DNA from: an uncultured Gemmatimonadales bacterium
GTDB lineage: Bacteria; Gemmatimonadota; Gemmatimonadetes; Longimicrobiales; Gaopeijiaceae
Reading direction: 5' to 3'
DNA length: 64,000 nucleotides
Assembly (NCBI GenBank): GCA_963809895.1
Contig: CAWELD010000010.1
Span: 480,001-544,000, forward strand
Position 1 is the first letter of the stretch. The number at the start of each line of letters is the position of its first letter. The translations under genes and the position numbers were made by a program. Below, piece by piece: positions 12,120 to 47,067 of this stretch. The notes beneath the pieces were generated by a model. The model had not been told where the DNA came from and did not search any database. It was given only the letters and a program-made list of their open reading frames with translations.

Positions 12120-12466
12120 TTGCCCGTGACCTCTCCGTTCAATTCCAATACCGCCTCAGCGTTGAAGAACGGAGCCGGCCTCAGCAGCTTGTTCTCCATC
12201 CTGACGATGAGTGGACGAATCTGCGCCAGGTAGGGTGCCCAGGCCGGATCAGCCCGCATGGCTTCACGGCGTGTGTGCCGATCCTCGAAGTCCCGATATC
12301 CCCAGAGATGGACGACCTGATTGAGGGGTCCGACCTCCGTGGAGTAATAGCCTAGCAGGCCCCCGAGATACTTGAGCTGAATGTGCAGAGCTTGCGCCTC
12401 GTACCGACGCATATAGTCGGGCACCTTCCCTGGCCACAGATCGTACGTACGCTGTTCGATGATCAT
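12116..12466 (-). CDS. NIPSNAP family protein
   Basis: EQRTYDL, EVGPLNQVVHLWGY. Confidence 0.9.
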   Translation of the reverse strand: MIIEQRTYDLWPGKVPDYMRRYEAQALHIQLKYLGGLLGYYSTEVGPLNQVVHLWGYRDFEDRHTRREAMRADPAWAPYLAQIRPLIVRMENKLLRPAPFFNAEAVLELNGEVTGK

Positions 12467-13841: not shown

Positions 13842-13862
13842 CTCTGATCCTCTCCTGACAGG

Positions 13863-15811: not shown

Positions 15812-16680
15812 CCCTGAAAGCGCGGCTCCTCGATTCCCCGCACCCCGGGTACGCACGCGAACAGCGCTCCGGCCAGAGGCTCCCGCGCGAGCTGCGCCGG
15901 GGACAGGCGCTGGGAGGCGGTGGTGATGTACATCGTGTCCAGACGCGATCCTCCGAAGGTCACGCAAGTGGGATTCGACACGGGGACCTCCACGACACAG
16001 TCTACCGAGCCGTCCGGCCGATAGCGGACCACACGCGCCCCGGCATACTCGGCGTTCCACAGGCATCCGTCCTCGTCTACGGCGGATCCATCCGGACGGC
16101 CGGGCTGATCCCGCGTGTCGCGAAAGAGCCGCTCGTTCGACATCCGTCCCTCGTCGGAATCGAAGTCATAGGCAAGGATGTGGTGGCGGTACGTATCGGC
16201 GAAGTACATGACAGAGGAATCCGGACTCCATGCCAGGCTATTCGGCACGATGACGTCTTCCAGCATGCGCCGACACGATCCGGCTCCGTCCAGGCGGTAC
16301 AGTGCTCCCACGGGATCTCTACTGACATCGCTCATGGTCCCCGCCCAGAACCTCCCGGCACGGTCGCATCGCCCGTCGTTGAATCGGTTCTGGGGATGGT
16401 CCTGCTCGGGAGACGCGAGCAGGGAGATGTCGCCGGTATCCGGGTCAAGCGTGTATATGCCGGTCTTCATGGCCGCGACGAAACCGCCACTTTCCCGCAA
16501 GGCCACGGAGCCCACCACCTCAGGCAGGCTGGACCGACTCCAGCCCGACCCATCCGCCTCGCAGGACTGCAGCGCCGGGCCGCGGCTGTCGACCCACCAC
16601 AGCCTCCCAGCCCTTCCGTCCCACACTGGGCTCTCACCCAGGCGATCACCGCACCTCACGACCAACTCCACATCGCTCAT
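15808..16680 (-). CDS. SMP-30/gluconolactonase family lactonase
   Basis: LGESPVWD, NRFNDG, PNSLAWSPD, PDGSAVD. Confidence 0.9.
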   Translation of the reverse strand: MSDVELVVRCGDRLGESPVWDGRAGRLWWVDSRGPALQSCEADGSGWSRSSLPEVVGSVALRESGGFVAAMKTGIYTLDPDTGDISLLASPEQDHPQNRFNDGRCDRAGRFWAGTMSDVSRDPVGALYRLDGAGSCRRMLEDVIVPNSLAWSPDSSVMYFADTYRHHILAYDFDSDEGRMSNERLFRDTRDQPGRPDGSAVDEDGCLWNAEYAGARVVRYRPDGSVDCVVEVPVSNPTCVTFGGSRLDTMYITTASQRLSPAQLAREPLAGALFACVPGVRGIEEPRFQG

Positions 16681-18155
16681 GTCCAAGCGGCGTCGTCGGA
16701 GTGACCCGCCCAACGTGTGGTCACTTTTCGGCTTTGCGTCCAGAACGCCAGGGACCCAGAGCCTGTGATGTCCCCAACACCAAATCTGGAGTGGTACCAT
16801 CCTCCAAAGGAGAACGGCTCGCGCGGCACGGGGACGCCTACGTTCACGCCGACCATTCCAGCGCGCACACGCTCGGTGACGGTGCGGGCCGCACCGCCGT
16901 CATTCGTGAATACCGAAGCCGCATTGCCGAACGGCGATGCGTTTTCCAACGCCACTGCGTCCAGCAGGCGGTCCACTCGCATCACCGCGAGAACGGGGCC
17001 GAAGACCTCATCACGTGATATGCGCATCGCGGGCGTGACGCCATCGATCACCGTCGGCCCTAGCCAGAACCCGCCGCTGCGGTCTCCCATCTTTGGCGAC
17101 CGTCCGTCCACAACGACTCGGGCGCCCTCACGCTCTGCCTCGTCGATGGCGGCCACGATCCGGTCGCGCGCGTGGGCAGAAATCACGGGTCCCATGTGAA
17201 CGCCGGGCTCCATGGCCCGGGCCTGCCTGATCAGCTCGTCGATGAGCTCGTCCGTGCCTGGTAGGGTCACCAACACCGAAGCCGCCATGCAGCGCTGCCC
17301 GGTGCAGCCCGCCATCGCGCCCAGAATAGCAGGCGGCGCGGTAACCGGGTCGGCGTCGGGAAGCAGGATCACATGGTTCTTCGCTCCTCCCAGGGCCAGC
17401 GCCCGTTTCAGGGTGGAGGTCGCTCGTCGGAAGACCGACTGTGCGGCAGGGGTCGAGCCGACGAAGGTGACCGCCACCACATCCGGGTGATCGCAGAGGG
17501 CCTCGACCGCAGATCGATCACCGTTCACCACGTTGAATACACCGGGCGGAAGACCCGCCTCGGCCAGGAGGTCCGCGGTCCGAGCCGCTGTGAGCGGCAC
17601 ACGCTCCGACGGTTTGAGGACCATGGTGTTGCCCAGCACCAAAGCCGTGGGAATGGTCCAGTGGGGCACCATGCAGGGAAAGTTGAACGGTGTGATCGAC
17701 GCCACGACACCCAGTGGCAGGATCTCGGAGCGGCACTCAACCCCGGCGCTGACCCGGTCGATACTTCCGGTCGTCAACTGCGGGAGCGAGCAGGCGAACT
17801 CCGTTTCCTCGATGGCCTTGTACACCTCCGCCTCGGCTTCCTCCTTGGTCTTGCCGTGCTCCTCCCTGATGAGGGAGCCCAGTTCCTCTACGTGCTCTTC
17901 CAGGAGAGTCCGATACCGGTAGAACACCTCGGCGCGCTCCCTTGACGTCAACGCGGACCACGAGGAGAAGGCCTCCCGGGCCACCTGAACGGCACGCCCC
18001 ACAGTGTCTGTAGACCCCAGGGGCACGTGTGCGATGATCTCCCCGGTTGACGGGTTGTGCACATCGGCCCTGGGACCATCGTCGTCTATGGGCACACCTC
18101 CGATCCGGTGCTGAACAAGCCCATATCGAGGGTCGGTCGTCGGTGTCATCGTCAT
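16677..18155 (-). CDS. mmsA: CoA-acylating (methyl)malonate-semialdehyde dehydrogenase
   Basis: ITPFNFP, ALGGAKNH, GQRCMA, VGVPVPREPFSFGG. Confidence 0.9.
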   Translation of the reverse strand: MTMTPTTDPRYGLVQHRIGGVPIDDDGPRADVHNPSTGEIIAHVPLGSTDTVGRAVQVAREAFSSWSALTSRERAEVFYRYRTLLEEHVEELGSLIREEHGKTKEEAEAEVYKAIEETEFACSLPQLTTGSIDRVSAGVECRSEILPLGVVASITPFNFPCMVPHWTIPTALVLGNTMVLKPSERVPLTAARTADLLAEAGLPPGVFNVVNGDRSAVEALCDHPDVVAVTFVGSTPAAQSVFRRATSTLKRALALGGAKNHVILLPDADPVTAPPAILGAMAGCTGQRCMAASVLVTLPGTDELIDELIRQARAMEPGVHMGPVISAHARDRIVAAIDEAEREGARVVVDGRSPKMGDRSGGFWLGPTVIDGVTPAMRISRDEVFGPVLAVMRVDRLLDAVALENASPFGNAASVFTNDGGAARTVTERVRAGMVGVNVGVPVPREPFSFGGWYHSRFGVGDITGSGSLAFWTQSRKVTTRWAGHSDDAAWT

Positions 18156-19144
18156 GTGCGGTACACCACGTTTTCAGGCTCGGCACCCCTAGCAAACCGA
18201 GCTAGGTTCTCGGCAATGAACGCCCATCGCCGCTCCAGCATTCCCTTGGTCCAAGCGGACGAATGGGGCGTCATCAGGACGTTCTCCAACTCAGCGAAGG
18301 GATGGCGGGAGGGTGGCGGATTCCGATCGCCTTCGGTGGGATAGCGGTACCAGGCGTCGAGCACCGCGCCGCCGATCAGTCCGGTCCTGAGGGCGTGGAA
18401 GAGGGCATCCTCATCAACCACTTCGCCGCGAGCGACGTTGATCAGCACGCCCGAATCCTTCATGCAAACCAGTTCATGGACGCCAATCAGGCCTAGCGTC
18501 TTGTGCCCGAGGGCCGTAGCCACCACGACGAAGTCGCACTCTCCCAGGAAGTCCTGGAGGGCGTCGAACCCCACGACGCTCTCCGCAAGGCCCTCTTTTC
18601 CGGCCGGCGTTCGTGTGCAGGCCAGCACCCGCGCACCCATGCAACGGGCCCTGCGTGCCACGGCTTGGCCGATACGCCCCAGGCCCACGATTCCGACCGT
18701 CGACTGGCCCAACTCACGCCCGAGGGGACCATCCATGCGGCCGCTCATGCGCCAACTCCCGGCTCGAAACGTCCTCTCTGCCTCTCGAAACGTCGAGCAA
18801 TTCAGCAGCATGGCGAGGACCACGTACTCGGCGATGGCCCCTTCATGACCGTAGGCGTTGGCCACCACGACTCCCGTGGGCAGGTGGTCGATGTCGATGC
18901 CATCCCACCCCGAACCCGCCACTTGGAGAAACTCCAGGTGCGGGGCAGGCGGCATCTCACGCGTATAGCGCAGAGTGAGCACTACCCGGGCCTCGGCCAG
19001 CACCCCGGTCATTTCCTCGATGGGCGTATCGTCCAAGACGCAGCTGAGCCGAGCCCCGGGGAATAGGTCCTTCAGGACCACCCCCTGTTCGCATGCCAGG
19101 GTGCCCAACATCACGACATCCAGAGGTTCAGCCGCCGTCGCCAT
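18152..19144 (-). CDS. D-2-hydroxyacid dehydrogenase
   Basis: GLGRIG, INVARG, GAVLDAW, MTPHSS. Confidence 0.88.
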   Translation of the reverse strand: MATAAEPLDVVMLGTLACEQGVVLKDLFPGARLSCVLDDTPIEEMTGVLAEARVVLTLRYTREMPPAPHLEFLQVAGSGWDGIDIDHLPTGVVVANAYGHEGAIAEYVVLAMLLNCSTFREAERTFRAGSWRMSGRMDGPLGRELGQSTVGIVGLGRIGQAVARRARCMGARVLACTRTPAGKEGLAESVVGFDALQDFLGECDFVVVATALGHKTLGLIGVHELVCMKDSGVLINVARGEVVDEDALFHALRTGLIGGAVLDAWYRYPTEGDRNPPPSRHPFAELENVLMTPHSSAWTKGMLERRWAFIAENLARFARGAEPENVVYRT

Positions 19145-20630
19145 GTGCCTCGCCGGTTGAGTTCGCCAGGAAATCCCGGATGCGATCCATGTAGACAGTG
19201 CGGTCATGGCTCTTCACCACCGCACCAGCCATGCGAACGGGATCGCCGAAGAAGAAGCGCTCGTAGAGCACCTGCCGCGATGCAAACGCCGACATGGCGG
19301 TATCCCACGCCAGGCGGAAGATGGGAATCCGCTCGTGGGCCTCCGCTCGGGCCGCTTGGAAATACCGCTGTATATCGGCAGCCATGGGGCCGTCTACGTC
19401 GGCTTCGGTGGGCATGGCCACGAGTCCGGACGCCCCCATCTGCCTGATGATCTCCACCATGCGCGGGTACAGGCGCGGGTACAGATTACGCGCGGCATCC
19501 AGTGGGGCCCATGCGGGTCGCATGACACCCCACTCATCCAGCTCGGCGTCCACCTCCGCCGTGCGGAGGAAGGCCTTCATCGTCTCCAGGTTCACCCAGA
19601 TCTCGGCAATCTTCTCCTGGATATGCTGGAATCCTTCGATGGCGATCGTGTCCGCAACCAGCGACGCGACGCCGAGCAGGAACTCGGTCTTCGCAACGTT
19701 CTTAACTACCACCTGGTGCGCCATGTGGACGACCGCGCCGGTACGGGCATACGACGCATTACACCGTTCGGGCTCACGGTACATGAACACGCGCTGCCAC
19801 GGGACCAGGACATCATCGAACGTCACCACCGCGTCCATCTCCTCGAAGCGCGAGGAGAGCGGGTGGTCATAGTGGGAGCGACCGTAGTCCACGCTCTCAC
19901 GGCATAGGAACCTCAGCCCTTCGGTGTTGCTCGGGATGCAGAATGCGTACGAATAGCCCGCATGTTCGGGTGTGTTCTTCAGGAACGTGGAGGGGAATAC
20001 CATGATCTCGTCGGACACGGGCAGAGTGGCCAGCATCCGACATCCCCGGATAACGATGCCCTCCGACGTCTCCTCCTTCACCTTCGCTGCCAGGTAGGGA
20101 TCATCCTGCTCAGCCGCGTGTTTGGCCCGGTTGGCCTGCGGGGAGCTGAGCGTGTGCGTGAGGCAGAGGTCGTTTTCCCGCATGTAACGGTGATACTCGC
20201 GGATATTCTCCCCAAAACGCGGGTCCTTTTCGGCGAGGAAGTCCGCGCCCCCGGCGTACCCCGAGATGGATCGGTTGATGTAGTCGGGCAGGCGGCCCAT
20301 GAGGCCGAAGCTGGCGCTCGCCCACTTCTTCATGGACCGACCGATGCTCTCCAACTCTGGTCCCGTGCGCGGGATCATGAACGAGCGTCCCACCTGGTTC
20401 CCAGTATCGGGAGACTGGAAGAGCGTGGCTTCTGGATCCTCCCACTGCATGTCGTAGAGGCCCGCCAGCGTATGGATGCCGCGCCCGATGGCCGGGTGCT
20501 CGGTCGGATCCTCGACCTGCTTCCCGCCGTACCAGAGGTTGGGCGGATCCTTGCGTAGGCGTTCCAACAGCGCAGAGCCGCTGCGTGCACCCCTCCCGGT
20601 GTCTTGTTCTCCTGCCGCGTCCTGCATCAC
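19128..20630 (-). CDS. hpaB: 4-hydroxyphenylacetate 3-monooxygenase-like oxygenase component
   Basis: GLMGRLPDY, LTHTL..PQANR, HPLSSRFEEMDA, SRQVLYERFFFGDP. Confidence 0.9.
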   Translation of the reverse strand: MMQDAAGEQDTGRGARSGSALLERLRKDPPNLWYGGKQVEDPTEHPAIGRGIHTLAGLYDMQWEDPEATLFQSPDTGNQVGRSFMIPRTGPELESIGRSMKKWASASFGLMGRLPDYINRSISGYAGGADFLAEKDPRFGENIREYHRYMRENDLCLTHTLSSPQANRAKHAAEQDDPYLAAKVKEETSEGIVIRGCRMLATLPVSDEIMVFPSTFLKNTPEHAGYSYAFCIPSNTEGLRFLCRESVDYGRSHYDHPLSSRFEEMDAVVTFDDVLVPWQRVFMYREPERCNASYARTGAVVHMAHQVVVKNVAKTEFLLGVASLVADTIAIEGFQHIQEKIAEIWVNLETMKAFLRTAEVDAELDEWGVMRPAWAPLDAARNLYPRLYPRMVEIIRQMGASGLVAMPTEADVDGPMAADIQRYFQAARAEAHERIPIFRLAWDTAMSAFASRQVLYERFFFGDPVRMAGAVVKSHDRTVYMDRIRDFLANSTGEAHGDGG

Positions 20631-26460: not shown

Positions 26461-26757
26461 CGAGGCTCGAAGCTCACTGCGAACCGCCCGAAACAGAATC
26501 CGAAGTACCGCGCTTGACAGCTCACCGTTTCGCATGAGGTGCGGTCGCAGCCGCTTGGGCACGGACAGCACCCATTGCCGCATCGGTACGACCGGAACGA
26601 CGCTGTCGCTGAGGTGTGCGGCGACCTCGGCCATGCGCCGGTTGGTGCACGAGGGGCAGACGCAGCGTCCCTTGCAGCTGAAGGCCACCAGCCGCTCCTG
26701 GCGGCAGTCGTTGCAGCGCGCCCGAGCGAACCCGAACGCGAGGATCCCGCAGGTGGC
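26461..26757 (-). mobile_element. IS91-family transposase fragment (zinc-binding domain)
   Basis: CGILAFGFARARC..C..VAFSCKGR..CPSC..RRM..RQWVLSVPKRLR. Confidence 0.85.
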
Positions 26758-33403: not shown

Positions 33404-34549
33404 ATGAAGAAGACGCTCGTCGCCTTTGTCGTGGCCATCTGGGCGCTGCCGGCGTCTGCGCAGCAGATGCCCGGGACCCTGCAATCACTCGACACGATCT
33501 ATCGGTTGGATGGCGAGGAGCTGGTGCTCGAAGCCGTGCCCACGGTGCTGCCGCTCCCGGATGGCTCCATGGTGCTGCCGCAACGAGACGCGGCCGAGCT
33601 GCGACGCTTCCTTCCCACTGGTCAGGAGCTGCTGCCGGCGCTGGGCGGAAAGGGGGCCGGGCCGGGCGAGTACGACCTCATCAACACCCTGGGGTGGAAG
33701 GGCGACTCGCTGTGGGTGTTCGACGGGCGCCAGAACCGCTTCACGCTCTATCCCGATTACGGCAGCGGCGAGCCCAACACCTACATGGGCGTGCATGCAG
33801 ACTCTCCTCCGGGCGGCGTCCTTCCCAATTCACCCCTGGTGCTTCCGATCGCGCTCCGACCGGACGGTGCCGTGCTCGGGCTCCTGGTGGGGCCTTCCTG
33901 GCCCACGGGCGACCAGGGTGAGGGCCAGACCATCGCATTGGTCGGTCCCGATCAGAAGACGCAGAGGGTCGTGGCGCGACTTGTCACGACGGCGGATGCC
34001 GAGAGAGACGGCAGCTCCACCTACGTGTTCCTGGATCCATTCGCCCATCAGCCGGTCCGAGCCGTGTCGGCCGATGGCGGATGGTTCGCGTTGGTCCAGT
34101 CACGAGCGCCGCGGCTGGATGGCCTCTTTCCCCAATCGATCCTCATGTTCGATGCCCAGGGGGATACTGCCTGGACGACCGAGATTATGGTGCGCGGAGC
34201 CGCGATTTCGGAGCACGCCAGACGGGAGCTCGTTGGGCAGGTGGCCGAGTTGTACCCGCAGGGCGTGCGCGGGCGGTATCTGAAGTGGATGGAGGGTGAA
34301 GACCGGGCGACGTTCTATCCGCCGGTTCGTGCGGCAGCCCTCGACATCGACGGCTCGCTCTGGCTCCAGCTCCGCGTGTCCGAGGAGAGCACGCAGGTTG
34401 TGCGAATCGGACCGGACGGTCGCCGGCCTTCCAGTGTTCCCGTGCCCGCCAACTCGATCCTCCGGGCGGTCCTGGGCCGACGCCTCTGGTTCGTGACCAG
34501 CGACGAGTTCGACGTCGAGAGCGTGGTGGCGGTGCGGGTCGGGGGGTGA
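33404..34549 (+). CDS. Secreted 6-bladed beta-propeller-like protein
   Basis: Signal peptide; GGKGAGPGEY, LWVFD, DEFDVESV C-terminus. Confidence 0.75.
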   Translation: MKKTLVAFVVAIWALPASAQQMPGTLQSLDTIYRLDGEELVLEAVPTVLPLPDGSMVLPQRDAAELRRFLPTGQELLPALGGKGAGPGEYDLINTLGWKGDSLWVFDGRQNRFTLYPDYGSGEPNTYMGVHADSPPGGVLPNSPLVLPIALRPDGAVLGLLVGPSWPTGDQGEGQTIALVGPDQKTQRVVARLVTTADAERDGSSTYVFLDPFAHQPVRAVSADGGWFALVQSRAPRLDGLFPQSILMFDAQGDTAWTTEIMVRGAAISEHARRELVGQVAELYPQGVRGRYLKWMEGEDRATFYPPVRAAALDIDGSLWLQLRVSEESTQVVRIGPDGRRPSSVPVPANSILRAVLGRRLWFVTSDEFDVESVVAVRVGG

Positions 34550-34592
34550 CGATTCGCCGGGGACAGGCTCGAGCGACGCCCCCGCGGTTCCC

Positions 34593-34976
34593 CTATCCGC
34601 CGAAGGCCGCGGCCAGACCCCGATCGAAGGTGCGGATGCGTTCGATGTCGCGGCGTCGGCAGCAGGCGAGGTGAAGGAGGTCCCGGGCCGTGAGCCCGGG
34701 GTTCGCGCCCACGAGCGAGCGGGCCAGATCCACGTCTTCCCAATCCACGGACCAGATCTCGCCCACCTGGGTGCGCGCCAGCGTGAGCGCGGCATCCAGC
34801 GTCTCCATCCGGTTCAGCGGCAGGTAGGCGTGCCGCAGCTCCTGGAGCACCTCCGCGGAGGTGACCAGCGTTTCAGCTGAAACGCGCTCCCGCAGGAAGA
34901 ACGCCCGCGCCTCTTCCTTCAAGGGATGCTCCCGACCCACGGCGTACATGAAGACGTTGGTGTCGACGAAGATCAT
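34593..34976 (-). CDS. vapC: VapC PIN toxin, duplicate copy with deleted antitoxin
   Basis: MIFVDTNVF, EVLQE, RDLLH, TFD; 3 aa differences from 46412-46795. Confidence 0.85.
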   Translation of the reverse strand: MIFVDTNVFMYAVGREHPLKEEARAFFLRERVSAETLVTSAEVLQELRHAYLPLNRMETLDAALTLARTQVGEIWSVDWEDVDLARSLVGANPGLTARDLLHLACCRRRDIERIRTFDRGLAAAFGG

Positions 34977-35075
34977 GTCCCGCTTCCGCCGGAGCGCTGG
35001 GAGTCGCCGATGAGCCGCTTGTGCTGGTCCCAATCCGGTTCCCGGCCGTCGCACTCGTCGGGATTTGCGACAAGA
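34973..35075 (-). pseudogene. Antitoxin remnant (only the 3' end left)
   Basis: Matches 46792-46891, then jumps to 47121-47137. Confidence 0.8.
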
Positions 35076-35156
35076 TCCTACGATCGGAGATGCTTGACTT
35101 TCTGATAGACTGCGACGCATGATAGAAGCCCCCCCCAAGGGACAGGGAGGAGAGAC

Positions 35157-35520
35157 GTGAGAGGGAATCGTGGGAGGCGGCTCGGATCCGCCACGAGCGC
35201 AGCACTGGCGCTGATGATGCTGGCTGGGTGTCAGGACGATCTGGCACTGGGTGCCAGGGTTCGCTGGCGTGTTTCTCGACCAAGATGGAAACGCTGTAGT
35301 GAGCCTCGCCCGGCCGGGCGCCGAAGCGGCTGCCACGGCATGGGTCCACGGGAGGGGACCGGAGCACGCACAACGTCCTGTGCGCTTCAGGTCGGTGGAG
35401 TTCTCGTTCGACCAGTTGAGTGACTGGCGTGATGAGGTGATGGCTCAGGCCGGGCCTGATGCGGTCCTCTTCGATGTCGACGAACTGAGGAACGGGGTGA
35501 CCATCGGCGTCACCACCTTG
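35157..35520 (+). pseudogene. Truncated lipoprotein fragment (protease pro-region-like)
   Basis: LAGC lipobox; VPGFAGVFLD, FSFDQL, DVDELRNGVTIGV in another frame. Confidence 0.4.
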
Positions 35521-35567
35521 CTTGGGACGATTTTCGCAGTATATACTCAAGATAGCGTATTGCCTCG

Positions 35568-36410
35568 ATGATTGGGGGAAGCATGTGGCATTCAGCGGTT
35601 CCCGTGCTCGTGCGTTCGGACCGGCTCAGGCAACGGCTTGTCCAGTTCTCCTGGCCAGCGGAAGTCGAGCTTCTCGTGTTCTCTGAGACCGCCGATCTGG
35701 CCAATCTCCCGGAGCCGTGCGGGGTCTTCTTGGTCGAGGACCAGGTTCTTCGCGAGTCGTCGATTCGTTCCGCGCTCGCTGCGTGCCTTCTCCGGGCCCG
35801 GACCTTGCGATGTATCTTGGTGCTCTCGACCTCGACCAGACCACTCTTCCTGCGGTCCCTCGCTGGCCGCGGCAGAGTCGCGGGGGTGCCTCCAGACGCG
35901 AAGACACTCCCGGAGCGGGTGATGCGAATGAAGTTACAATCATGGCGAGATCGCATGGTCTCCCGGATTCGGGCGGCACGCTACCCGCCCTTTCTCCTCC
36001 GGGAGGCCCTCGTTCTCTTGCTTCGGCAGGGTGTCTCAGAGGACTTTGGGCACCGCCTCCGCACCGTTACGGCGGTCGCCGAGAGACTCGGCGTCCGACG
36101 CGAGACACTGTCCCGTTTGAGCAGCGCGCATCGAATTCAAATACCGGACTTCGCAGACGCATGCCTGATCGTGGGGGTTCTCTCCGAGGCGGCCATTGCC
36201 AAGACCCCGTGGGTGGAGCTGTCGATTCGCCTGGGCTACGCTTGGCAGTCTGGCCTGGTCGAACTTGTGAAGCGTGGCCTCGGCGTTGCACCTGGCGAGG
36301 CTAAGCATGTTTGGCTTGGAAACCTCGCGCGCTGGTGGGAAACCACAGCGCTTGTCCCCGCTCTCCAGTCGACATCGATGAGGAACACGGACCTTGATCA
36401 CACCGGCTGA
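35568..36410 (+). CDS. HTH (AraC-like) transcriptional regulator with degenerate N-terminal domain
   Basis: TVTAVAERLGVRRETLSR; WVELSIRLGY; LVKRGLGVAP. Confidence 0.6.
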   Translation: MIGGSMWHSAVPVLVRSDRLRQRLVQFSWPAEVELLVFSETADLANLPEPCGVFLVEDQVLRESSIRSALAACLLRARTLRCILVLSTSTRPLFLRSLAGRGRVAGVPPDAKTLPERVMRMKLQSWRDRMVSRIRAARYPPFLLREALVLLLRQGVSEDFGHRLRTVTAVAERLGVRRETLSRLSSAHRIQIPDFADACLIVGVLSEAAIAKTPWVELSIRLGYAWQSGLVELVKRGLGVAPGEAKHVWLGNLARWWETTALVPALQSTSMRNTDLDHTG

Positions 36411-36527
36411 AGACCGCGCACGCGGAGCGTAACGCGGCTGCCACGTTCGGCGCACTCTTGAGGGGCCCAAGGAGCGCGCTACGTCGAAAGCTGCCCTCCG
36501 ATCTTTCACTGACACTGGGAGGTGCCC

Positions 36528-36809
36528 ATGTTTGCACGCCTGCGATTGACGCTGGCGCTTGGTTCTGTCGTGCTCGCGATGTACATGTTGATTGGTGCGA
36601 GTCCCGCGAGTGCGATCACCTTCACTAGCTTGGCGGAATGCACAGCGCACCCCTCCCAAAACACCTGCTGCCAGTGCGCAGGGGTCGGACCCAACCCTGA
36701 ATCTGGTTCAAAATTCTGCTATCAGAGTGACCCCGGTCAAGGCGGGACTGATTGGTGTAACGACGAGGTCTGTCCATACGAGGACCCACCCTGCGGTATC
36801 GTCGAGTGA
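36528..36809 (+). CDS. Small secreted cysteine-rich protein (8 Cys, ~64 aa mature)
   Basis: GGGAGG Shine-Dalgarno; Sec signal ending ASA; stop overlaps the next ORF. Confidence 0.8.
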   Translation: MFARLRLTLALGSVVLAMYMLIGASPASAITFTSLAECTAHPSQNTCCQCAGVGPNPESGSKFCYQSDPGQGGTDWCNDEVCPYEDPPCGIVE

Positions 36810-38017
36810 TGTCGGCTCGGAACGGGGCACGGGAGTACGTCCCGTGCCCCGTTCATGCGAAGAGGTTCGCTAGTCGTCCGGCTGCATCGCAGTCCGGATT
36901 CCACCTTGCGGAGATCCTCTCGATCCTCGCCATTTTGATCTCGGTGGCTGGCTGCCAACCCGATCACTCACCCCTTTTTTTCGGGGGCGAGGAACCCCGC
37001 GACCTTGGCGCGGCGCTCCAAGGTGCCCCGTCCGTGAAATCGTGGGACCTCGTGGAGCAATGGGGCGCCCTAGATGGCCCACAAGCGTTCTCCGTGATCA
37101 ACGATGTCGCGGTCTCAAGAGACTCGGTTCTGGCAGTCGCTGACCGTTACACGTGCAGGGTGATCCTGATTGACATTCCGACTGACTCCACTTGGTCCAT
37201 CGGCGGCTGCGGCCGGGGCCCGGGCGAGTTCCAAGACATCAACGCCTTGGCGTTTCAGGGGAGCACCCGCTTGTGGCTGTCCGACCGAGGGCAAGGAAAG
37301 GTCGCTCTCGTCAATCTACGGACGGGAACGGTAGAGAAGGAGCGTCCACTGGATGCAATACTCCCAGGCCTAGGTGCGATAGCCGCACGCGAAATCGTCC
37401 CAATTCGCGGTGACACGGTGCTTCTAGGCTTGAAACTCCTTCCATCTCAGACCCGTGGGAGACTGCTCGTCGCCAAAGTCGACTTCGAGACAGAGACCCT
37501 CTTGAGACGATTCGTCGCTGATCCCGCGATGTCGGTTGACACCAGATGGTCGTGGGGCCCGAGCGTCCACATTTGCGGCTCACGAGATTTTTGGGCGGTT
37601 GCCAATGAGTGGACTTCGCAGGTGCAGGTCTACTCCATCGCCACGGGCCAGCTCCTGTCGAATGTAAACCTCCCGACTACTTGGTGGATCCCTGTCGACG
37701 ATGGAGCAGAGCCGAACAGTCTTATCGCTCCATCCCAGGATCCGAGAATACTGTGCACGGAGAGCTCGATAGCCATCAACCACAAGGAGTGGCTTGTGAT
37801 TGACCGTCGCCTCACGATTCCTCACTCACGACTGGTTCTGATGGACCCTAGCGGGACAATCAGGCTCGTCGACGAGGCGGAGGCCCCCACGCACGGCTCG
37901 CCTCACACACTAACCCTGGGTGCGATTTTGGGAGATCTACTCTTCGGATATACCACCAGCCTCTTCGACTACCCCATAGTGCGCGCATACCGTCTGCAGG
38001 AGCTTGAAGATGAGTAA
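36806..38017 (+). CDS. 6-bladed beta-propeller-like lipoprotein
   Basis: VAGC lipobox; FSVINDVAV, GGCGRGPGEF; start codon uncertain. Confidence 0.75.
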   Translation: MMSARNGAREYVPCPVHAKRFASRPAASQSGFHLAEILSILAILISVAGCQPDHSPLFFGGEEPRDLGAALQGAPSVKSWDLVEQWGALDGPQAFSVINDVAVSRDSVLAVADRYTCRVILIDIPTDSTWSIGGCGRGPGEFQDINALAFQGSTRLWLSDRGQGKVALVNLRTGTVEKERPLDAILPGLGAIAAREIVPIRGDTVLLGLKLLPSQTRGRLLVAKVDFETETLLRRFVADPAMSVDTRWSWGPSVHICGSRDFWAVANEWTSQVQVYSIATGQLLSNVNLPTTWWIPVDDGAEPNSLIAPSQDPRILCTESSIAINHKEWLVIDRRLTIPHSRLVLMDPSGTIRLVDEAEAPTHGSPHTLTLGAILGDLLFGYTTSLFDYPIVRAYRLQELEDE

Positions 38018-38666
38018 GCAGTCTAGGGTGAGGCGAGCGGCACTCGAATGGTCGCTGGTTTTGCTCATCGTCTGTCTAACGCTAGCGCTGTACATGGAAC
38101 GTCGGGATGCGGGCACTTTGGTGGCGTCCGCAGAACGGATCGTTAAGGAGCGAGATAAGGCGAACACGGAGCTTGAGCACCTGTCATATTTCTTCCGGTC
38201 CCAGGCCGCCCACATCGGTTCGCCCTTCGCCAGGGGCATCGACGTGGTTGGCGATACCGCGATCCAGTTCGTCCGGCCCCACGATGGCCTCTACTATGCG
38301 ATGCAGACGTCCTGCCCCGCTTGTTCACGGAATTTTCCATTCATCGAGCGGCTCCGGCGAGAATCGCCAGAGACCTTCGGCGTGTTCATCTTGTCCTTCA
38401 CTGATTCCGCCTCAGTGTTGCGCGAATATGCTCTCGAGCAACGCCTAGCTTCACCCGTCCTAGCGCAGCTTGCTGGAGGCATAACTGAGCTATTCCCCGG
38501 ATATGGAACGCCATTCGCCATCGCGGTGTTGGACGGGTGCATCGTCCTGACGGCGGCCGGCGAGTTCAGTCCGTCGGAACAGAGAGAGTTCGAGATTCTA
38601 GCGCGAGAACGACCCGTCCGTCGTTCAGAGCCCCCGACGAGAATGAAACCTGTGAGCGCATGCTAA
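38010..38666 (+). CDS. Membrane-anchored thioredoxin-like (TlpA/ResA-type) protein
   Basis: N-terminal TM helix, coiled region, TSCPAC, cis-Pro motif GTP. Confidence 0.7.
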   Translation: MSKQSRVRRAALEWSLVLLIVCLTLALYMERRDAGTLVASAERIVKERDKANTELEHLSYFFRSQAAHIGSPFARGIDVVGDTAIQFVRPHDGLYYAMQTSCPACSRNFPFIERLRRESPETFGVFILSFTDSASVLREYALEQRLASPVLAQLAGGITELFPGYGTPFAIAVLDGCIVLTAAGEFSPSEQREFEILARERPVRRSEPPTRMKPVSAC

Positions 38667-38674
38667 CCGGGTAA

Positions 38675-38764
38675 CTGGTGCTCGAAGCCGTGCCCACGGT
38701 CCTGCCGCTCCCGGATGGCTCCATGGTGCTGCCGCAACGAGACGCGGCCGAGCTGCGACGATTC
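38675..38764 (+). repeat. 90-bp copy of beta-propeller gene segment 33521-33610
   Basis: LVLEAVPTVLPLPDGSMVLPQRDAAELRRF. Confidence 0.9.
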
Positions 38765-39800
38765 AGGGCGTGCCCCTGGAGGCCGTGGCGTGCGGTGTCT
38801 GCCCCTCGTGCACCAACCGGCGCATGGCCGAGGTGGCGGCACACCTCTGCGACCGGGTGATCCCTGCCGTGTCCGTGCGCCAGTGGGTCCTCTCCGTCCC
38901 GAAGCGGCTGCGGCCGCACCTCGCAATCCTCACGGAGCCCGACGCAGCAGATATGCTGGAGTTGCGTGGAACCGGTGGCTTCAGCGTCGACGGCTCCGTG
39001 CGCATCACCGCGCACGACCGGGCCGGGCTCGAGCGATGTCGCCCTCCGCCTCGCTCCGCTCGAGCTGCTCCAGCGGCTCGCCCGCCTGATCCCCCCTCCG
39101 CGACTGCACCGGCACCGCTACCACGGCGTCTTCGCCCCGCACTCCAGCTGGCGCTCGGACGTCGTGCGCTTCGCGAGGGAGACGACGCAGGACCCCGAGC
39201 CCCACGCCCTCCCCTCGCCTCCGGGGGCCACCCCCGCCCCCTGCGCCCACGGCGCTTCACGCGCCCGCTCCCGATGGGCCCGTCTCCTGGCCCGCGTCTA
39301 TGAGGTCGACCCGCTGCGGTGCCCGTCCTGCCATGGGGAGATGCGCGTCGTCTCCTTCCTCACCGACCCACCCGTCGTCCGCCGGATCCTCCGGCACCTC
39401 AACCTCCCCGAACATCCACCGCCCCTCGCACCGGCTCGAGGGCCGCCCCAGCGCGAGCTCCTCGCCGTCGATCCTCCCTCTCCCTGCGATCTCGGCCCTG
39501 CGCCTTCCTCCGGGCGCGACCCCTTCGACCAGAGCCTCCCCGGCGACGACGGCACTTGGTCCGCTTGAGACGGCTGCTGAAGCCTGGGGTGCGGCCGCCG
39601 CCTCGCCGAAGCCCGCCCATCCAGCCATCCAGATGCCGCATTCGCGCATCGCCCGCCTCCAGGGGTGCCCGACGCCCCTACCGGTTCATCCAGACCGCCC
39701 GCCTGCTGCCGTTCTGCCTGACACGAGCGCCTTGCCGACACGAAGCTCACCCCCGTATCCTGCGCCCAGGTGGTCCCACCCCGTTTGAACTTCCTATTCC
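38765..39800 (+). mobile_element. Internally deleted IS91/ISCR element with an oriIS-like right end
   Basis: CPSC..RQWVLS, GGFSVD, LIPPPRLHRHRYHGVFAP, WARLLARVYEVD..CP.C; ends GTTTGAACTTCCTATTCC. Confidence 0.85.
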
Positions 39801-39950
39801 TAGCAACGGTCTGATTACGCTGCACGAGGGCCGGCAGAGTGTTCAGGTGCGACGATGCCCCGAGCGGATCGTAGCCGACCTGCCGCTCCGTCCTTCTGTA
39901 TTCTCTGAGGTGGCATCACTCGTCTGAGTTTCCGCGTTCGAGGACTAGCT

Positions 39951-41036
39951 ATGCCAAAGATCTTTGCGTGGTCCGTCGTGCTTGGGCTGCTGCCCATCCA
40001 CACACTCGCTGCCCAACGGGTCGTCGTCGCCGGCCCTGCCCGATGCGATTCGTGTCGCATTACCGTGTCAAGGGAATTGCTCTTCGGAGACGACAGCGGT
40101 TCAGGTATCATTGAAGATCTCGGCTCCTGGGTGCGGCGCGGACCTCACGGAGAATATCTAGTGGTGGCGCGCGCAGGCTCAGCGCAGACCATCGCGGTCT
40201 TCGACTCTCTTGGACGCTTTCGGCAACGCGTCGGTAGGCCCGGACAGGGTCCCCGTGAGTTCCAAGACATTGTTCAAGTCCAAGTGGTTCACGGCACGCA
40301 TATCGCAGTGTTGGACCGGCTGAACATGCGCCTCTCTCTATGGTCAGCACAGTTCGCGCTGGAGGAGACTCATCCCTTGGGTGTCCTCTTGGGAAACGAC
40401 GCCTTCTACCTACCGGACGGATCGTTGATCTCCAATGGCCGCCAACCTACGCCGGCTCTTGTCGGTCGTCCAGCCATCCTGATAGACACAGCGGGGCAAC
40501 CCATAAGGGCGTTCAATGCTCATGGTGACCGGTACGTGGCGACTAATGAGGACCAAAGTCGCCGTCGCCTCGCGCTGAGTGGTGATACCGCCTTTTGGTC
40601 TGCTCATGTCGATCGATACGAGATGCATCTTTGGCGCCCGGGAGGACAGCTGCTGCTCACGTTGGACGGTTCGCTCGACTGGTTTCCGAATGTTGCAGAG
40701 GAACAGATTCCCGGCGAACCCTCACCTCCTCGACTCCTTGATCTGAGGGAAAAGGATGGCGTACTGTGGATGCTCGTAGCGGTAGCGGACAAAGACTGGA
40801 AGGACTCGGTTACTCCCGACGCAAAGAACTCCCGAGGTTATCACATTGTCGATTACCGCGGCTACCGGGATGCCATGCTTCACGCGGTTGATGTCCACTC
40901 GGGCGAGCTGTTGGGAGAGTATCGACTAGACGTCCCCGCATTCAACTTCGTAGATGACGACCACCTCGCGTACGTCGAAGAGGACGCCGACCTAGTTCCC
41001 CGTATGGTCATAGTGGCCTTCCACCTCTTGCGTTGA
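39951..41036 (+). CDS. Secreted 6-bladed beta-propeller-like protein
   Basis: Signal peptide; CDSC; VFDSLGRFRQRVGRPGQGPREF. Confidence 0.75.
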   Translation: MPKIFAWSVVLGLLPIHTLAAQRVVVAGPARCDSCRITVSRELLFGDDSGSGIIEDLGSWVRRGPHGEYLVVARAGSAQTIAVFDSLGRFRQRVGRPGQGPREFQDIVQVQVVHGTHIAVLDRLNMRLSLWSAQFALEETHPLGVLLGNDAFYLPDGSLISNGRQPTPALVGRPAILIDTAGQPIRAFNAHGDRYVATNEDQSRRRLALSGDTAFWSAHVDRYEMHLWRPGGQLLLTLDGSLDWFPNVAEEQIPGEPSPPRLLDLREKDGVLWMLVAVADKDWKDSVTPDAKNSRGYHIVDYRGYRDAMLHAVDVHSGELLGEYRLDVPAFNFVDDDHLAYVEEDADLVPRMVIVAFHLLR

Positions 41037-41145
41037 CTGCCTCTTGGACTCTATTAGACGAGGAGCGCGCACCCTACCCGGCTCACTTCATACTTTGTAC
41101 CTAGGGGGGAGGGGCTGTTAATATTCATTCAACGAAGAGGGACCT

Positions 41146-41535
41146 GTGAGAATCCTACTACTCGCATTGCTTCTGACGCCTTTCACAATACTCGGGCGTC
41201 CCGCCCCGCTCTCAGCCCAAGACCCGCACCCCTGCTGGGGCTGCGAATCGATTGGGGGCGCCACGCTCTGTGTGAATGAAGATGGCGACACCGGTCGCAA
41301 GCAGACTTGCACGCAATACTGGGAACCGATCCACTGCGAGTTCAGTCTTGAGAATTGCCCGACCTTCGTGTATGACGAGTTGCCCGCCGACGCCTCGGTG
41401 ACTGTCGGGGGGACATTCCTTGGCGTCGGCTGGCCCGGTGTTACCGAGCAAGACTTGGAAATAAACCCCTGCACTGGCTTGGTGCTGACCATTGCTGACT
41501 ACCCTGATGCACCGCCGTTGACGATGACCTTGTAG
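41146..41535 (+). CDS. Small secreted cysteine-rich protein (7 Cys)
   Basis: GAGGG Shine-Dalgarno; Sec signal ending LSA; N-terminal 6-Cys domain. Confidence 0.75.
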   Translation: MRILLLALLLTPFTILGRPAPLSAQDPHPCWGCESIGGATLCVNEDGDTGRKQTCTQYWEPIHCEFSLENCPTFVYDELPADASVTVGGTFLGVGWPGVTEQDLEINPCTGLVLTIADYPDAPPLTMTL

Positions 41536-41613
41536 CGAGGCCTGGCCCCTCCCCTTTCCTAGGTCTCGGCTGACGAGAAGATAGGTTGCACCACCCGAGG
41601 TTGCAGATGACTC

Positions 41614-42699
41614 TTGAGATACACTTCCACTTGGATAATCCTTTCCTCCACCTGCTTGTTATTCATCATGGGGACCCCCGTGAGGGGTCAAGCATTCGAT
41701 GCCAGTCTCTCCTGGGAGGTGGGTGCAGCAGAAGGTGGTCCTGAAGAGTTGTGGACTTTCATCCGAGATGCGGTCGTGCTCGACGGCACCATATTCGTAG
41801 TAGACTCGGGAGCGCCCGCCATCCGGCTATTTACTCTGGACGGGCAATTCCTGAAGACAATGGGGCGTGCAGGTAGCGGACCAGGCGAGTACCGCATCCC
41901 CCTTTCGGTTGAGACGGCCGGTGACCGTGTGGCGGTGCTAGACCAAACACAGGGTCGCATCTCCTTGTTCGATAGTGGGGGCCGCTATGTCGAGACTCAT
42001 AGGTTGGGTGCGACACCGGTTCGCGTCTGGGAACTCTCCTCAGGTTGGACGCTGTCTCTCTACCGTGGCTACGTCGACGGACAGCTTTCCCTCCTCACGG
42101 CTCGACGCGACGCTAGGCTTGACACACTGGCAACCTTTCCTAATGCCTATGTCGAGTTTCATGTAGCTCCAAGAGGGTACCCGAGCGTCCCGAGCGTCAA
42201 TATCGTTGGCGGCATGGATGGCGCAGTGGCGGTCTTGAATGACTCGACGGTAGTCCTTGTGGATAGTGCATCGATCTTGAGGGTCCTTCGACCTCGAGCA
42301 CGCGGGTGGGTCGAGACGCTTGCGGAGCGTTTGTCAGTACGCTCTGAGCCGCTCTCCGACGCAGATCGACGTGCAGCTGCCGAAGTGGTGCATGCGGCAT
42401 TCCGGGACGATCCGCGCCTAGTAGATCCCACCTTCCCGGAGAAGTGGCCAACGTGGATCGACTCTCACGCCACGAAAGGTGTGGTGTGGCTCCGGGAGGG
42501 AGGCATGAAGGGTTCGTTCCTCGGTCGCTATCCCGAACGGTGGTGGCTATGGCAGCCGGGGCGAGGGGCTGCCCTCGGTCTCATCCTACCTGCCGGGACA
42601 CGAGCGCTTCGCTTTCTTGGCACGAAGGGTGTGATCGCAAAGCGCCAGACATCATTGGGTATAGAGGTCCTGCAATTCTTCAGGATCACGCCGTCGTAG
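41614..42699 (+). CDS. Secreted 6-bladed beta-propeller-like protein
   Basis: IFVVD, FTLDGQFLKTMGRAGSGPGEY, GIEVLQFF C-terminus. Confidence 0.78.
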   Translation: MRYTSTWIILSSTCLLFIMGTPVRGQAFDASLSWEVGAAEGGPEELWTFIRDAVVLDGTIFVVDSGAPAIRLFTLDGQFLKTMGRAGSGPGEYRIPLSVETAGDRVAVLDQTQGRISLFDSGGRYVETHRLGATPVRVWELSSGWTLSLYRGYVDGQLSLLTARRDARLDTLATFPNAYVEFHVAPRGYPSVPSVNIVGGMDGAVAVLNDSTVVLVDSASILRVLRPRARGWVETLAERLSVRSEPLSDADRRAAAEVVHAAFRDDPRLVDPTFPEKWPTWIDSHATKGVVWLREGGMKGSFLGRYPERWWLWQPGRGAALGLILPAGTRALRFLGTKGVIAKRQTSLGIEVLQFFRITPS

Positions 42700-42700
42700 T

Positions 42701-43130
42701 GTGGCAGCCAAGAGAAGGACCCGCGTCATGCTGGGAGGCGTTGCCGTCCTGACTTGCGTTGCGCAGGCCTTGTCGGGTGCGGAGGTTGTCGGTCAGGCGT
42801 CAGCATCCGGGGCGGAGGCCGTTGCAGATGTTCTCCTTCGAGAGCTCGGCATCACCACCACCGCGGGCTCCTCACCAGCGCCGATGGACGGTTCGGGTCT
42901 CGCCTCTCTGCAATCAGCAATCACAGGGCGCACGGCACTTGCACACGCGGTGCGAGGGCTTCTCTCTATGTGGCCAATCAGGGAGTCCTGCGACTCCTCC
43001 CAACAACCGACTGAACGCTGCGGGGATAGAGTCTGGCTGTGGAGTGTATTCGGTGCCTCTGAGCCGGCCGATCTACTGAGGTCGGCCGAGCGCATCGCGA
43101 CGGTTCTGGCCTACTGGATAGACAATCTGC
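42701..43130 (+). pseudogene. Truncated secreted hypothetical protein
   Basis: Signal-like N-terminus; frame runs into the 90-bp repeat and IS end. Confidence 0.35.
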
Positions 43131-43225
43131 AGGAGCTGGTGCTCGAAGCCGTACCCACGGTCCTCCCGCTCCCCGATGGCTCCATGGTGCTCCCGCAGCG
43201 AGACGCAGCCGAGCTGCGGCGCTTC
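43131..43225 (+). repeat. Third copy of the beta-propeller segment (33516-33610)
   Basis: Nucleotide and protein identity. Confidence 0.9.
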
Positions 43226-43625
43226 AGGGCGTGCCCCTGGAGGCCGTGGCGTGTCGTACCGTCCTCACGACGCGAGTCCCGGCATTCTCGCCGCCGGACC
43301 CGCCCCGTCCGCCCCTTCCAGCGCCCGCGTCGTGCCCCCCACTTGGGGCATGCCTCGCACCAACCGCGCCCACCGGCAGCGCCGTCGCCCATACGAGACG
43401 CCGCGCTTTCCTGCGGCGGCTCAAGGGTTCTCCCCCTCGGCGGTGTATCGCCCGCTTCGCCCCGCCACGACGCTCCTCTACCGGGTCGTCCAGCATCACC
43501 TCAACACCTTTCTCGTGCTGCGCGAACGGGACACGGGCCGCTCCGTCCCGACCTGGACCGAGAAGGAGTTCAGGCAGTACCTCACCTGCGGGATCTTGGC
43601 CCACGGCTTCGCCCGCATCCGCTGG
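43226..43625 (+). mobile_element. Left part of IS91/ISCR element (putative end plus transposase N-terminus)
   Basis: First 28 bp identical to 38765-38792; YRPLRPATTLLYRVV..EFRQYLTCGILAHGFARIR. Confidence 0.8.
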
Positions 43626-46377: not shown

Positions 46378-46411
46378 TTGCCGTTGACTGACCCAGGGCC
46401 CCGCGGTTCCC

Positions 46412-46795
46412 CTATCCGCCGAAGGCCGCGGCCAGACCCCGATCGAAGGTGCGGATGCGTTCGACGTCGCGGCGTCGGCAGCAGGCGAGGTGAAGGAGGT
46501 CCCGGGCCGTGAGCCCGGGGTTCGCGCCCACGAGCGAGCGGGCCAGATCCACGTCTTCCCAGTCCACGGACCAGATCTCGCCCACCTGGGTGCGCGCCAG
46601 CGTGAGCGCGGCATCCAGCGTCTCCATCCGGTTCGCCGGCAGGTAGGCGTGGAGCAGCTCCTGGAGCACCTCCGCGGAGGTGACCAGCGTTTCAGCTGAA
46701 ACGCGCTCCCGCAGGAAGAACGCCCGCGCCTCTTCCTTCAAGGGATGCTCCCGACCCACGGCGTACATGAAGACGTTGGTGTCGACGAAGATCAT
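46412..46795 (-). CDS. vapC: VapC PIN-domain toxin
   Basis: MIFVDTNVF..QE..RD..TFD. Confidence 0.9.
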   Translation of the reverse strand: MIFVDTNVFMYAVGREHPLKEEARAFFLRERVSAETLVTSAEVLQELLHAYLPANRMETLDAALTLARTQVGEIWSVDWEDVDLARSLVGANPGLTARDLLHLACCRRRDVERIRTFDRGLAAAFGG

Positions 46796-47067
46796 GTCCC
46801 GCTTCCGCCGGAGCGCTGGGAGTCGCCGATGAGCCGCTTGTGCTGGTCCCAATCCGGTTCCCGGCCGGGCTCTCGGGCGTCGCACTCGTCGAAGAAGCGC
46901 TTCAGCTCGCTCTGGGTCTCGAGGCCGCGGCGACCTTCCGCGGCCTGCGCCCGTTCCCGGGCAGCTTCCCGTAGCCAGGCGCTCAGCGTCTTGCCCTCGC
47001 GCACCGCCATGCGCCTGAATCGCTCCTTCTCAGCGGCGTCGAGGACGAGATGAATGCGCTCGGTCAT
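46792..47067 (-). CDS. vapB: RHH-type antitoxin
   Basis: RIHLVLD..A.REGKTLSAWLREA; ATGA overlap with vapC. Confidence 0.8.
   Translation of the reverse strand: MTERIHLVLDAAEKERFRRMAVREGKTLSAWLREAARERAQAAEGRRGLETQSELKRFFDECDAREPGREPDWDQHKRLIGDSQRSGGSGT

Follow-up and report, generated by a model that had tools for sequence, protein, structure and literature searches.

Cysteine-rich mini-proteins of predicted export are encoded with propeller proteins in a recurrent gene module of Gemmatimonadota

Small proteins of the NVEALA family (PF14055) occur in Bacteroidota beside propellers of the families DUF5128 (PF17170), TolB_like (PF15869) or DUF4221, often with a thiol-disulfide protein adjacent to them, and these loci are uncharacterised. 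A propeller and a small partner are also found in the mau cluster, which comprises the propeller MauB, the small subunit MauA, MauD and MauE, and in which the tryptophan tryptophylquinone (TTQ) cofactor needs two Trp residues in the small subunit. Here, two gene cassettes combining small cysteine (Cys)-rich proteins with propellers were analysed at positions 35568-42699 of a 64,000-nt stretch, the window, from an uncultured Gemmatimonadales bacterium (assembly GCA_963809895.1, contig CAWELD010000010.1, positions 480,001 to 544,000, forward strand). A first-pass annotation made from the sequence alone had proposed them as a ligand/receptor or toxin/immunity system. The module is real, recurrent and undescribed, and it joins a known but unexplained propeller family to a non-canonical thioredoxin fold and two uncatalogued families of mini-proteins. 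A literature search on NVEALA, DUF5128 and the combined cassette, with subscription journals outside its coverage, found no paper.

All genes of both cassettes lie on the forward strand, and the coordinates, order, overlaps and Cys counts of their open reading frames (ORFs) were all as first annotated. Cassette 1 comprises a cytoplasmic regulator with an AraC-like helix-turn-helix (HTH) in its C-terminal half (35568-36410), followed by a trio of genes. Mini-protein 1 (36528-36809) has 93 aa, a hydrophobic leader and an acidic core with eight Cys (C-x-CCxC-x-C-x-G-x-C-x-C-x-C). Propeller 1 (36809-38017) is a predicted lipoprotein (VAGC) with a predicted six-bladed NHL-type fold and four conserved Cys besides the lipobox. 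The third member is a 218-aa protein with an N-terminal membrane helix, a linker and a TlpA-like thioredoxin fold (38010-38666). The ATG of propeller 1 overlaps the stop codon of mini-protein 1 at 36809, and the ORFs of propeller 1 and the thioredoxin-fold protein overlap by 8 nt. Cassette 2 consists of propeller 2 (39951-41036), whose mature chain opens with a CxxC motif, mini-protein 2 (41146-41535), with 129 aa, a leader, an acidic six-Cys knot and a second small domain carrying one conserved Cys, and propeller 3 (41614-42699), whose mature chain has no Cys. Both propellers of cassette 2 have export-type leaders; leaders and membrane helices were called throughout by a hydropathy rule made for this analysis, without SignalP. 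Upstream of both cassettes lies a solo propeller of the GPGE[FY] family (propeller 0, 33404-34549, forward strand), with 381 aa, no Cys, an export-type leader and no adjoining mini-protein. The motif G..G.GP.E[FY] was present in the four window propellers, which shared only 20-26% identity, in agreement with the divergence first described. Propellers 2 and 3 matched PF17170 with 27.7 and 40.3 bits, above the gathering cut-off of 22.9, while Pfam gave no match for propellers 0 and 1. The mini-proteins and the thioredoxin-fold protein had zero matches in Pfam, NCBIfam and PADLOC, which places the mini-proteins outside the curated families, as had been expected. The lower GC content noted for the cassettes also held (0.61 in cassette 1 and 0.59 in cassette 2 vs. 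0.70 and 0.72 in the flanks), and the gene of propeller 0 had 0.67.

The trio of cassette 1 recurs as a unit. With the window thioredoxin-fold protein as query, eight matches were found outside its own genome, two of them borne by cassettes and six being ordinary TlpA-like genes. A three-row profile of the thioredoxin family, built from the window protein and two relatives, matched 12 of 401 genomes, three of these being query rows. All 12 loci carried one propeller subfamily, recognisable by four conserved Cys in addition to the lipobox. One or two 8-Cys mini-proteins were present at 11 of them; the twelfth had a propeller broken by an insertion, no mini-protein and no active-site Cys. These 12 loci are not independent, since they were drawn from six genera. 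The profile of the 8-Cys family matched 6 of 401 genomes, every one at trio loci, and the family was found solely with the 4-Cys propeller subfamily. All eight Cys were kept in its 15 rows (seven invariant, one at 90%), with spacers of variable length. Searched in the opposite direction, the profile of propeller 1 gave 21 loci at E below 1e-50, of which 12 were the trio loci, while the remaining nine had neither the thioredoxin-family gene nor an intact mini-protein within the 1.5-5 kb examined, one of them keeping a frameshifted mini-protein remnant. Furthermore, the 8-Cys and 7-Cys profiles aligned over a six-Cys core with a probability of 89, a score of the kind that Cys patterns inflate.

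The 7-Cys family of mini-protein 2 is more widespread. A profile of eight 7-Cys proteins from the own genome had matches in 20 out of 300 further genomes from the same class, and a same-strand propeller lay directly downstream at 19 of the 22 loci outside the own genome. A 5-row profile matched 56 clusters at 50% identity, own-genome members included, and 44 of these hits together with 10 loci made up an alignment of 54 rows, in which five Cys were invariant and the C-terminal Cys was retained in at least 90%. The number of Cys after residue 20 was odd in 53 of the 54 rows (seven in 44, nine in eight and 11 in one), so that one thiol is likely free or used between chains; as the mature chain of propeller 3 has no Cys, the lone Cys of mini-protein 2 cannot pair with it. 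The model of mini-protein 2 consisted mostly of short strands (predicted local distance difference test, pLDDT, 80; predicted template modelling score, pTM, 0.55), and fold searches with it gave no match, which is no proof of a new fold. An Atlas search with one 7-Cys homologue returned no usable match, mini-protein 2 as a single query found nothing in 60 relatives, and single-sequence searches of a large protein set returned for both mini-proteins only themselves or a 98% twin. In what follows, labels C3, C8 and C10 give own-genome coordinates, and L-numbers give loci in relatives. At L072:3796-6509, a six-Cys mini-protein and a propeller come first, and behind them lie genes for a signal peptidase S26 and for a CarboxypepD_reg repeat protein. 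At L025, L029, L031 and L034, more synonymous difference was seen in the knot-coding segment than in the adjacent propeller, a hint of possible segment exchange only, given the few sites and four non-independent sequences.

At the level of the whole genome, 89 propeller ORFs were found with a profile of the N-terminal blades, a huge expansion of DUF5128-type propellers, for which the searchable literature describes no function. Among the small ORFs with a hydrophobic leader and at least four Cys, 12 of 21 lay within 500 bp of a same-strand propeller, compared with 4 of 79 Cys-poor ORFs, 1 of 24 ORFs with two or three Cys and 3.3% of random free positions. With the 7-Cys profile, 11 of 14 own-genome matches were within 250 bp of a propeller. 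The linkage of mini-protein homologues to propellers, on which the first-pass annotation had staked its proposal, was thereby borne out by 12 of the 21 own-genome ORFs, by 19 of the 22 7-Cys loci of relatives and by the trio loci (12 of 12 with the propeller and 11 of 12 with the mini-protein). A paralogous locus (C3:932672-941400) repeats the regulator, a 7-Cys protein and propellers, and the same cassette type occurs in sequence records of Longimicrobiales and Gemmatimonadota. About 75 of the 89 propellers had no mini-protein neighbour (solo propellers), and the GC content at third codon positions (GC3) was 0.68 in the 14 linked propellers, a class assigned after inspection of the neighbourhoods, vs. 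0.83 in 70 full-length solo propellers. A third mini-protein family, with a Cys/His knot and a C-terminal domain carrying one lone Cys, was seen at C3:1056402, 1569122, 2644479 and 816296 and at L155 and L158, and three of its four own-genome copies touch a propeller. A frameshifted copy of the mini-protein gene at C8:20811 lies at C3:3681501-3682059, beside an insertion-sequence gene near a contig end. A tree of 101 propellers was discarded, as only 258 of 1599 columns were kept and known subfamily members were scattered; therefore, no claim of co-evolution is drawn. Charge complementarity was not supported either, the linked propellers being still mostly net negative.

The AlphaFold 2 model of propeller 1 (pTM 0.81) was a six-bladed NHL propeller, whose best fold matches were NHL domains, such as that of Brat (Z 25.8, root-mean-square deviation, rmsd, 3.5, 268 residues aligned), and whose first Atlas hit was a DUF5128 cluster (0.94). 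A single-sequence search with it at E 1e-8, in which the best 7996 candidates were scored, returned only itself. No His reached 80% conservation in 10 rows of its family, which therefore shows no evident metal-enzyme site. The window thioredoxin-fold protein matched TlpA-like proteins in a profile search (probability 95, E 3e-8, 90 columns) and redoxin clusters in the Atlas (0.94), which agrees with its first description, and CPAC and the TP loop were present in its sequence. Its membrane helix starts at residue 15, leaving about a dozen cytoplasmic residues. Across the 12 loci of this family, the active-site motif was CxxC in two, CxxS in nine and without Cys in one. Since CxxC is kept in only two, a dedicated oxidase is doubtful: of the dedicated oxidative folding first proposed, the thioredoxin fold stands, but the oxidase motif does not, and the gene belongs to cassette 1 only. 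A role as DsbA-type oxidase is closed to CxxS proteins, which instead tend to trap their clients or reshuffle them, and the CxxS majority therefore leads us to read the thioredoxin-fold protein as a probable tethered folding aid. Other cassettes carry DsbA-like, MauE or MauD-like genes in place of the trio thioredoxin. A mau-like cassette variant was observed at L068:8647-11508 and L075:1-2656, where a very Cys-rich protein (16 Cys in L068) and a propeller are accompanied by MauE and a MauD-like or redoxin gene.

The HTH call for the regulator rests on a weak HTH_18 match (E 0.075, under the Pfam cut-off) together with its own family profile, which was built from three own-genome copies picked because they head cassettes. 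With this profile, nine loci in 8 of 150 family genomes were found, six of them at mini-protein/propeller sites (one loosely, on the opposite strand) and three elsewhere. The HTH regulator of the first-pass annotation is thus upheld by its recurrence at cassettes, but only weakly by Pfam, and most of the cassettes examined have no regulator. A fourth own-genome copy, apparently broken and with no adjoining cassette, is located at window positions 10918-11415 (forward strand). A variant at L154:2040-5095 combines the regulator with a thioredoxin-like gene, a propeller, a pair of short proteins that each close with a CC motif, and an ATP-binding cassette (ABC) transporter.

The ratio of nonsynonymous to synonymous substitution rates (dN/dS) was obtained from orthologue pairs among relatives only, the window genes having no close orthologue. 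It ranged from 0.05 to 0.31 for the genes of cassette 1 and from 0.25 to 0.51 for whole 7-Cys genes, with a highest single-domain value of 0.76, these being whole-gene or domain averages that can hide single sites; several distant pairs were saturated. As the values were below 1, these genes are real and under purifying selection. The mini-proteins are likely stapled by disulfides. No Trp column at 50% was present in either mini-protein family, and none of the 15 8-Cys rows had two Trp.

Remnants of insertion sequence common region (ISCR)/IS91 transposases, absent from the first-pass annotation, were found after each cassette. Remnant 1 (38675-39800, forward strand) comprises a 90-bp copy from inside the gene of propeller 0, an internally deleted transposase (38791-39403) and an oriIS-like end (39783-39797), while remnant 2 (43131-43624, forward strand) comprises a 95-bp copy of the same gene followed by the 5′ part of a transposase (43401-43622). 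Both transposases matched NF052416 below its cut-off (ISCR clade Ia) and both are fragmentary, with none intact in the window; all ISCR matches of the genome fall inside the window. The motif at 39783 was the only one in the genome to fit what we take to be the oriIS consensus, and a control pattern also matched once. The 90-95 bp piece may have come from the gene of propeller 0 or have gone into it. Contigs from four unrelated soil or wetland metagenomes bridge both remnants into a longer element, with 47, 129 and 309 extra letters, and one contig reaches further into the sequence of propeller 0; the element therefore carries a propeller piece in nature. The ISCR junction was not recovered in two pattern scans of metagenome contigs. 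A third transposase fragment, in opposite orientation, lies at 26470-26754 (reverse strand). Moreover, a 469-bp direct repeat brackets both cassettes, with its left copy at 34580-35048 and its right copy at 46399-46867 (98.7% identity). ISCR elements are described in parts of a preprint as moving adjacent genes, also as a two-copy sandwich (bioRxiv 10.1101/2025.01.22.634252), and capture by such an element may account for the window cassettes. A general role of ISCR was rejected, as a propeller or mini-protein was present at none of 12 ISCR loci examined in relatives; therefore, the ISCR is considered the vehicle of the window copy and not a part of the system.

Integrons appear to have carried solo propellers as well. 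The propeller at C10:604246-605370 has the look of a single-gene cassette; attC-like sites, called with our own regular expression, flank it, and an integron integrase lies upstream at a distance of a few cassettes. Two integrase-headed tracts amounting to 5.4% of the genome hold 32 of the 89 propellers. At C10:600939-640000, attC-like sites come after the integron integrase, along with numerous toxin-antitoxin pairs and with solo propellers. At C3:3210000-3365000, a tyrosine recombinase precedes a long, mostly co-oriented array of unrelated short genes that includes 21 solo propellers and, at about 3319915, a VKOR gene; the same regular expression found no attC-like sites in the tract from 3.245 to 3.365 Mb.

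Taken together, the cassette is tentatively read, at somewhat less than an even chance, as encoding an exported acidic Cys-rich mini-protein that would act as a narrow-range effector against other strains and be captured or neutralised by a six-bladed NHL-type propeller, cognate or orphan. Its genes are co-oriented, overlapping or near-touching, and kept together across the class. Both the mini-protein and the propeller are predicted to be exported by Sec, with a lipid anchor on propeller 1. The membrane-tethered thioredoxin fold, mostly CxxS, may then hold and reshuffle its four-disulfide client via a mixed disulfide and would not be a DsbA-type oxidase, the operon may be switched by its AraC-like neighbour, and the mini-protein would dock onto the propeller. 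Solo propellers, some of them single integron cassettes, could be orphan captors of the mini-proteins of other cells, and the window copy probably came with an ISCR element. Effector/immunity sets are typically asymmetric, with a surplus of stand-alone partner genes, as in polymorphic toxin loci. The same direction is seen here, since mini-proteins seldom occur without a propeller and propellers mostly occur without a mini-protein. The surplus of solo and integron-borne propellers indicates that carrying a propeller pays even on its own, as would suit a captor of foreign ligands.

Several observations weigh against this effector/neutraliser reading. The frameshifted propeller of the relative at L088 stands beside two intact mini-proteins, which conflicts with a strict toxin/immunity pair unless it is an assembly error, as it may be. 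Some cassettes have two mini-proteins per propeller and others two propellers per mini-protein; three of the 22 7-Cys loci have no propeller (one at a contig end, two with none within 1.5 kb), and several small Cys-rich ORFs of the own genome have none adjoining. The knots were net negative in 68 of 69 rows (53 of 54 7-Cys and 15 of 15 8-Cys), which makes a cationic toxin unlikely. The cassette ORFs and the mini-protein rows matched no known toxin or defence domain, neither cassette encodes an outer-membrane exporter, all orthologue pairs that yielded a dN/dS value had it below 1 (0.05-0.76), and the solo propellers may simply have an independent role. Of the polymorphic toxin/immunity system first envisaged, polymorphism is therefore retained between paralogues (the 56 clusters at 50% identity) but not between orthologues, which are under purifying selection, and the immunity side finds its counterpart in orphan partner genes in mobile arrays, while the toxin side is opposed by the missing toxin domain, the acidic knots and the dN/dS values. 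In a bolder version, exported disulfide-knot effectors would make up an undescribed class in Gemmatimonadota, sharing a six-Cys core with family-specific additions, each folded by a CxxS thioredoxin tether and neutralised by a matching NHL propeller, and the solo DUF5128 propellers, dozens in each genome, would form a decoy library acquired via integrons and ISCR against the effectors of neighbours; in this extended form the proposal is unlikely.

Purifying selection on both partners and the translational coupling at 36809 also suit a stable two-subunit surface protein, in which the mini-protein would be the small subunit or an exchangeable tip on the propeller, assisted by Mau-like helpers, and the pair would bind an environmental or host ligand. 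The MauE and MauD-like genes at the Cys-rich protein/propeller loci of two relatives are in its favour, as are the signal peptidase and CarboxypepD_reg repeat proteins adjoining some cassettes. Acidic disulfide modules moreover bind six-bladed propellers in animals, as in the low-density lipoprotein (LDL) receptor, and nidogen/laminin appeared among the fold matches of propeller 1. However, most propellers of the family stand without a mini-protein and are well adapted in GC3, and a stalk gene is absent from the window cassettes, so we regard a two-subunit protein as rather unlikely. The presence of the regulator family at six of nine loci of relatives, sigma-factor-like ORFs (named by eye) preceding other cassettes and the acidic, non-lytic character of the mini-proteins would agree with peptide signalling, in which a strain-specific pheromone (the mini-protein) would be bound by a receptor (the propeller) and the response given by the AraC-like protein. 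This is quite improbable, as the cassette has no membrane transducer, its sole membrane helix exposing about a dozen residues to the cytoplasm, and most cassettes examined lack the regulator.

Two enzymatic explanations were also weighed. In a periplasmic pathway resembling those of peptides that are ribosomally synthesised and modified post-translationally (RiPPs), the propeller would be a tailoring enzyme (PAL- or lactonase-like) or a chaperone maturing a Cys-rich precursor. PAL (Z 22.2, rmsd 3.5, 278 aligned) and several six-bladed hydrolases were indeed among the fold matches of propeller 1, but PAL-type NHL enzymes conserve His metal ligands in the propeller centre, and the propeller-1 family conserves no His and few polar residues. 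Gene sets with MauE/MauD and precursors of at least eight Cys have been proposed, in a source consulted for part of its content, as candidate RiPP clusters in Streptomyces (PMC7794033). As the propellers diverge as much as their partners and mostly have no precursor, a RiPP-like role is very improbable. An amine-dehydrogenase-like enzyme, with a small Cys-rich catalytic subunit, a propeller and MauD-like maturation, would have a parts list equal to mauB/mauD/mauA, and one member of the thioredoxin family has a weak MauD match (E 0.006). Against it, no 8-Cys protein out of 15 has two Trp and neither family a conserved Trp column, the propeller matches six-bladed NHL domains, and the cassette ORFs include no cytochrome gene; this enzyme is extremely improbable.

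Other features of the window surround the cassettes. The left copy of the repeat (reverse strand) contains a PIN/VapC gene and the end of an antitoxin gene, most of which is gone, while the right copy (reverse strand) lies inside a complete PIN toxin-antitoxin pair (46412-47067). Just before the regulator, a truncated ORF (35093-35571) with no Pfam match has DNA 78-91% identical to C3:1978493-1979021. Downstream of propeller 3, the 5′ part of an ORF with a hydrophobic start (42701-43130, forward strand) runs into ISCR remnant 2, and no relative of it was found; a relationship to the DUF885 gene at the paralogous locus was rejected, the two being unrelated. Promoter and terminator scans gave no signal above chance. 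A second island of lower GC content (0.62-0.66) extends over 11634-20627 (reverse strand), with genes that resemble, by eye only, enzymes of aromatic-compound breakdown.

The conserved three-gene unit, with mini-protein 1 and propeller 1 as an unambiguous cognate pair, makes the function directly testable with a pair of small recombinant proteins. Bacterial four-disulfide mini-proteins without a fold match would add new scaffolds to those known, and a thioredoxin tether of the CxxS type that serves a single client would be unusual among folding aids. If true, the effector and decoy-library reading would assign a role to a gene expansion that ranks among the largest unexplained ones, here and in other uncultured phyla.

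Compared with known systems, the window cassettes resemble NVEALA loci in placing a small Cys-rich protein of predicted export beside a DUF5128-type propeller, and the DUF4221 protein BVU_1028 gave the longest alignment to propeller 1 among the top fold matches (319 residues, Z 21.1, rmsd 3.7). Unlike NVEALA proteins, N[VIL]EAL was found in none of the 54 7-Cys and 15 8-Cys rows, which gave no PF14055 match in Pfam, and the system has plain signal peptides, a lone-Cys second domain in one family, an AraC-like regulator and ISCR/integron vehicles; a genome-wide PF14055 search was blank, with its controls silent too. The disulfide-rich small protein with a membrane-anchored thioredoxin-fold helper, and the MauE/MauD-like genes at related loci of two relatives, recall mau, whereas the window cassettes have a six-bladed NHL propeller, no TTQ Trp pair and no MauE. 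TIGR02661 (MauD) matched one of 10 thioredoxin-family rows (E 0.006), the window protein not being that row. The main text on the candidate RiPP clusters with MauE/MauD and eight Cys mentions no propeller (PMC7794033). With NHLRC2 and SOQ1, in which a thioredoxin-like domain is fused to the propeller and which were both among the fold matches of propeller 1, cassette 1 shares the pairing of a six-bladed NHL propeller with a thioredoxin fold that is non-canonical. For NHLRC2, passages of one paper report that classical reductase activity is absent, that a cleft separates the thioredoxin-like and NHL domains and that bacterial homologues have no conserved neighbours (PMC6107167). In contrast, the window has separate overlapping genes, CPAC/CxxS and not CCINC, and a co-encoded mini-protein. 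Diverse paralogous cassettes, a mobile context and a surplus of stand-alone partners are common to polymorphic toxin and bacteriocin immunity loci, an immunity role of the orphans being a proposal; unlike these loci, the cassettes lack a recognisable toxin domain, a delivery module, a double-glycine leader and a C39 exporter, their cores are acidic and dN/dS is below 1. The remnants share with ISCR elements their clade Ia transposase matches and an oriIS-like end, but both copies are broken and the cargo is not a resistance gene. BamH, as far as parts of a preprint describe it, is a propeller different from those of the cassettes (bioRxiv 10.1101/2025.01.31.636011). Overall, the module resembles the NVEALA/propeller loci in the way it works and mau in its parts list, and is a member of neither.

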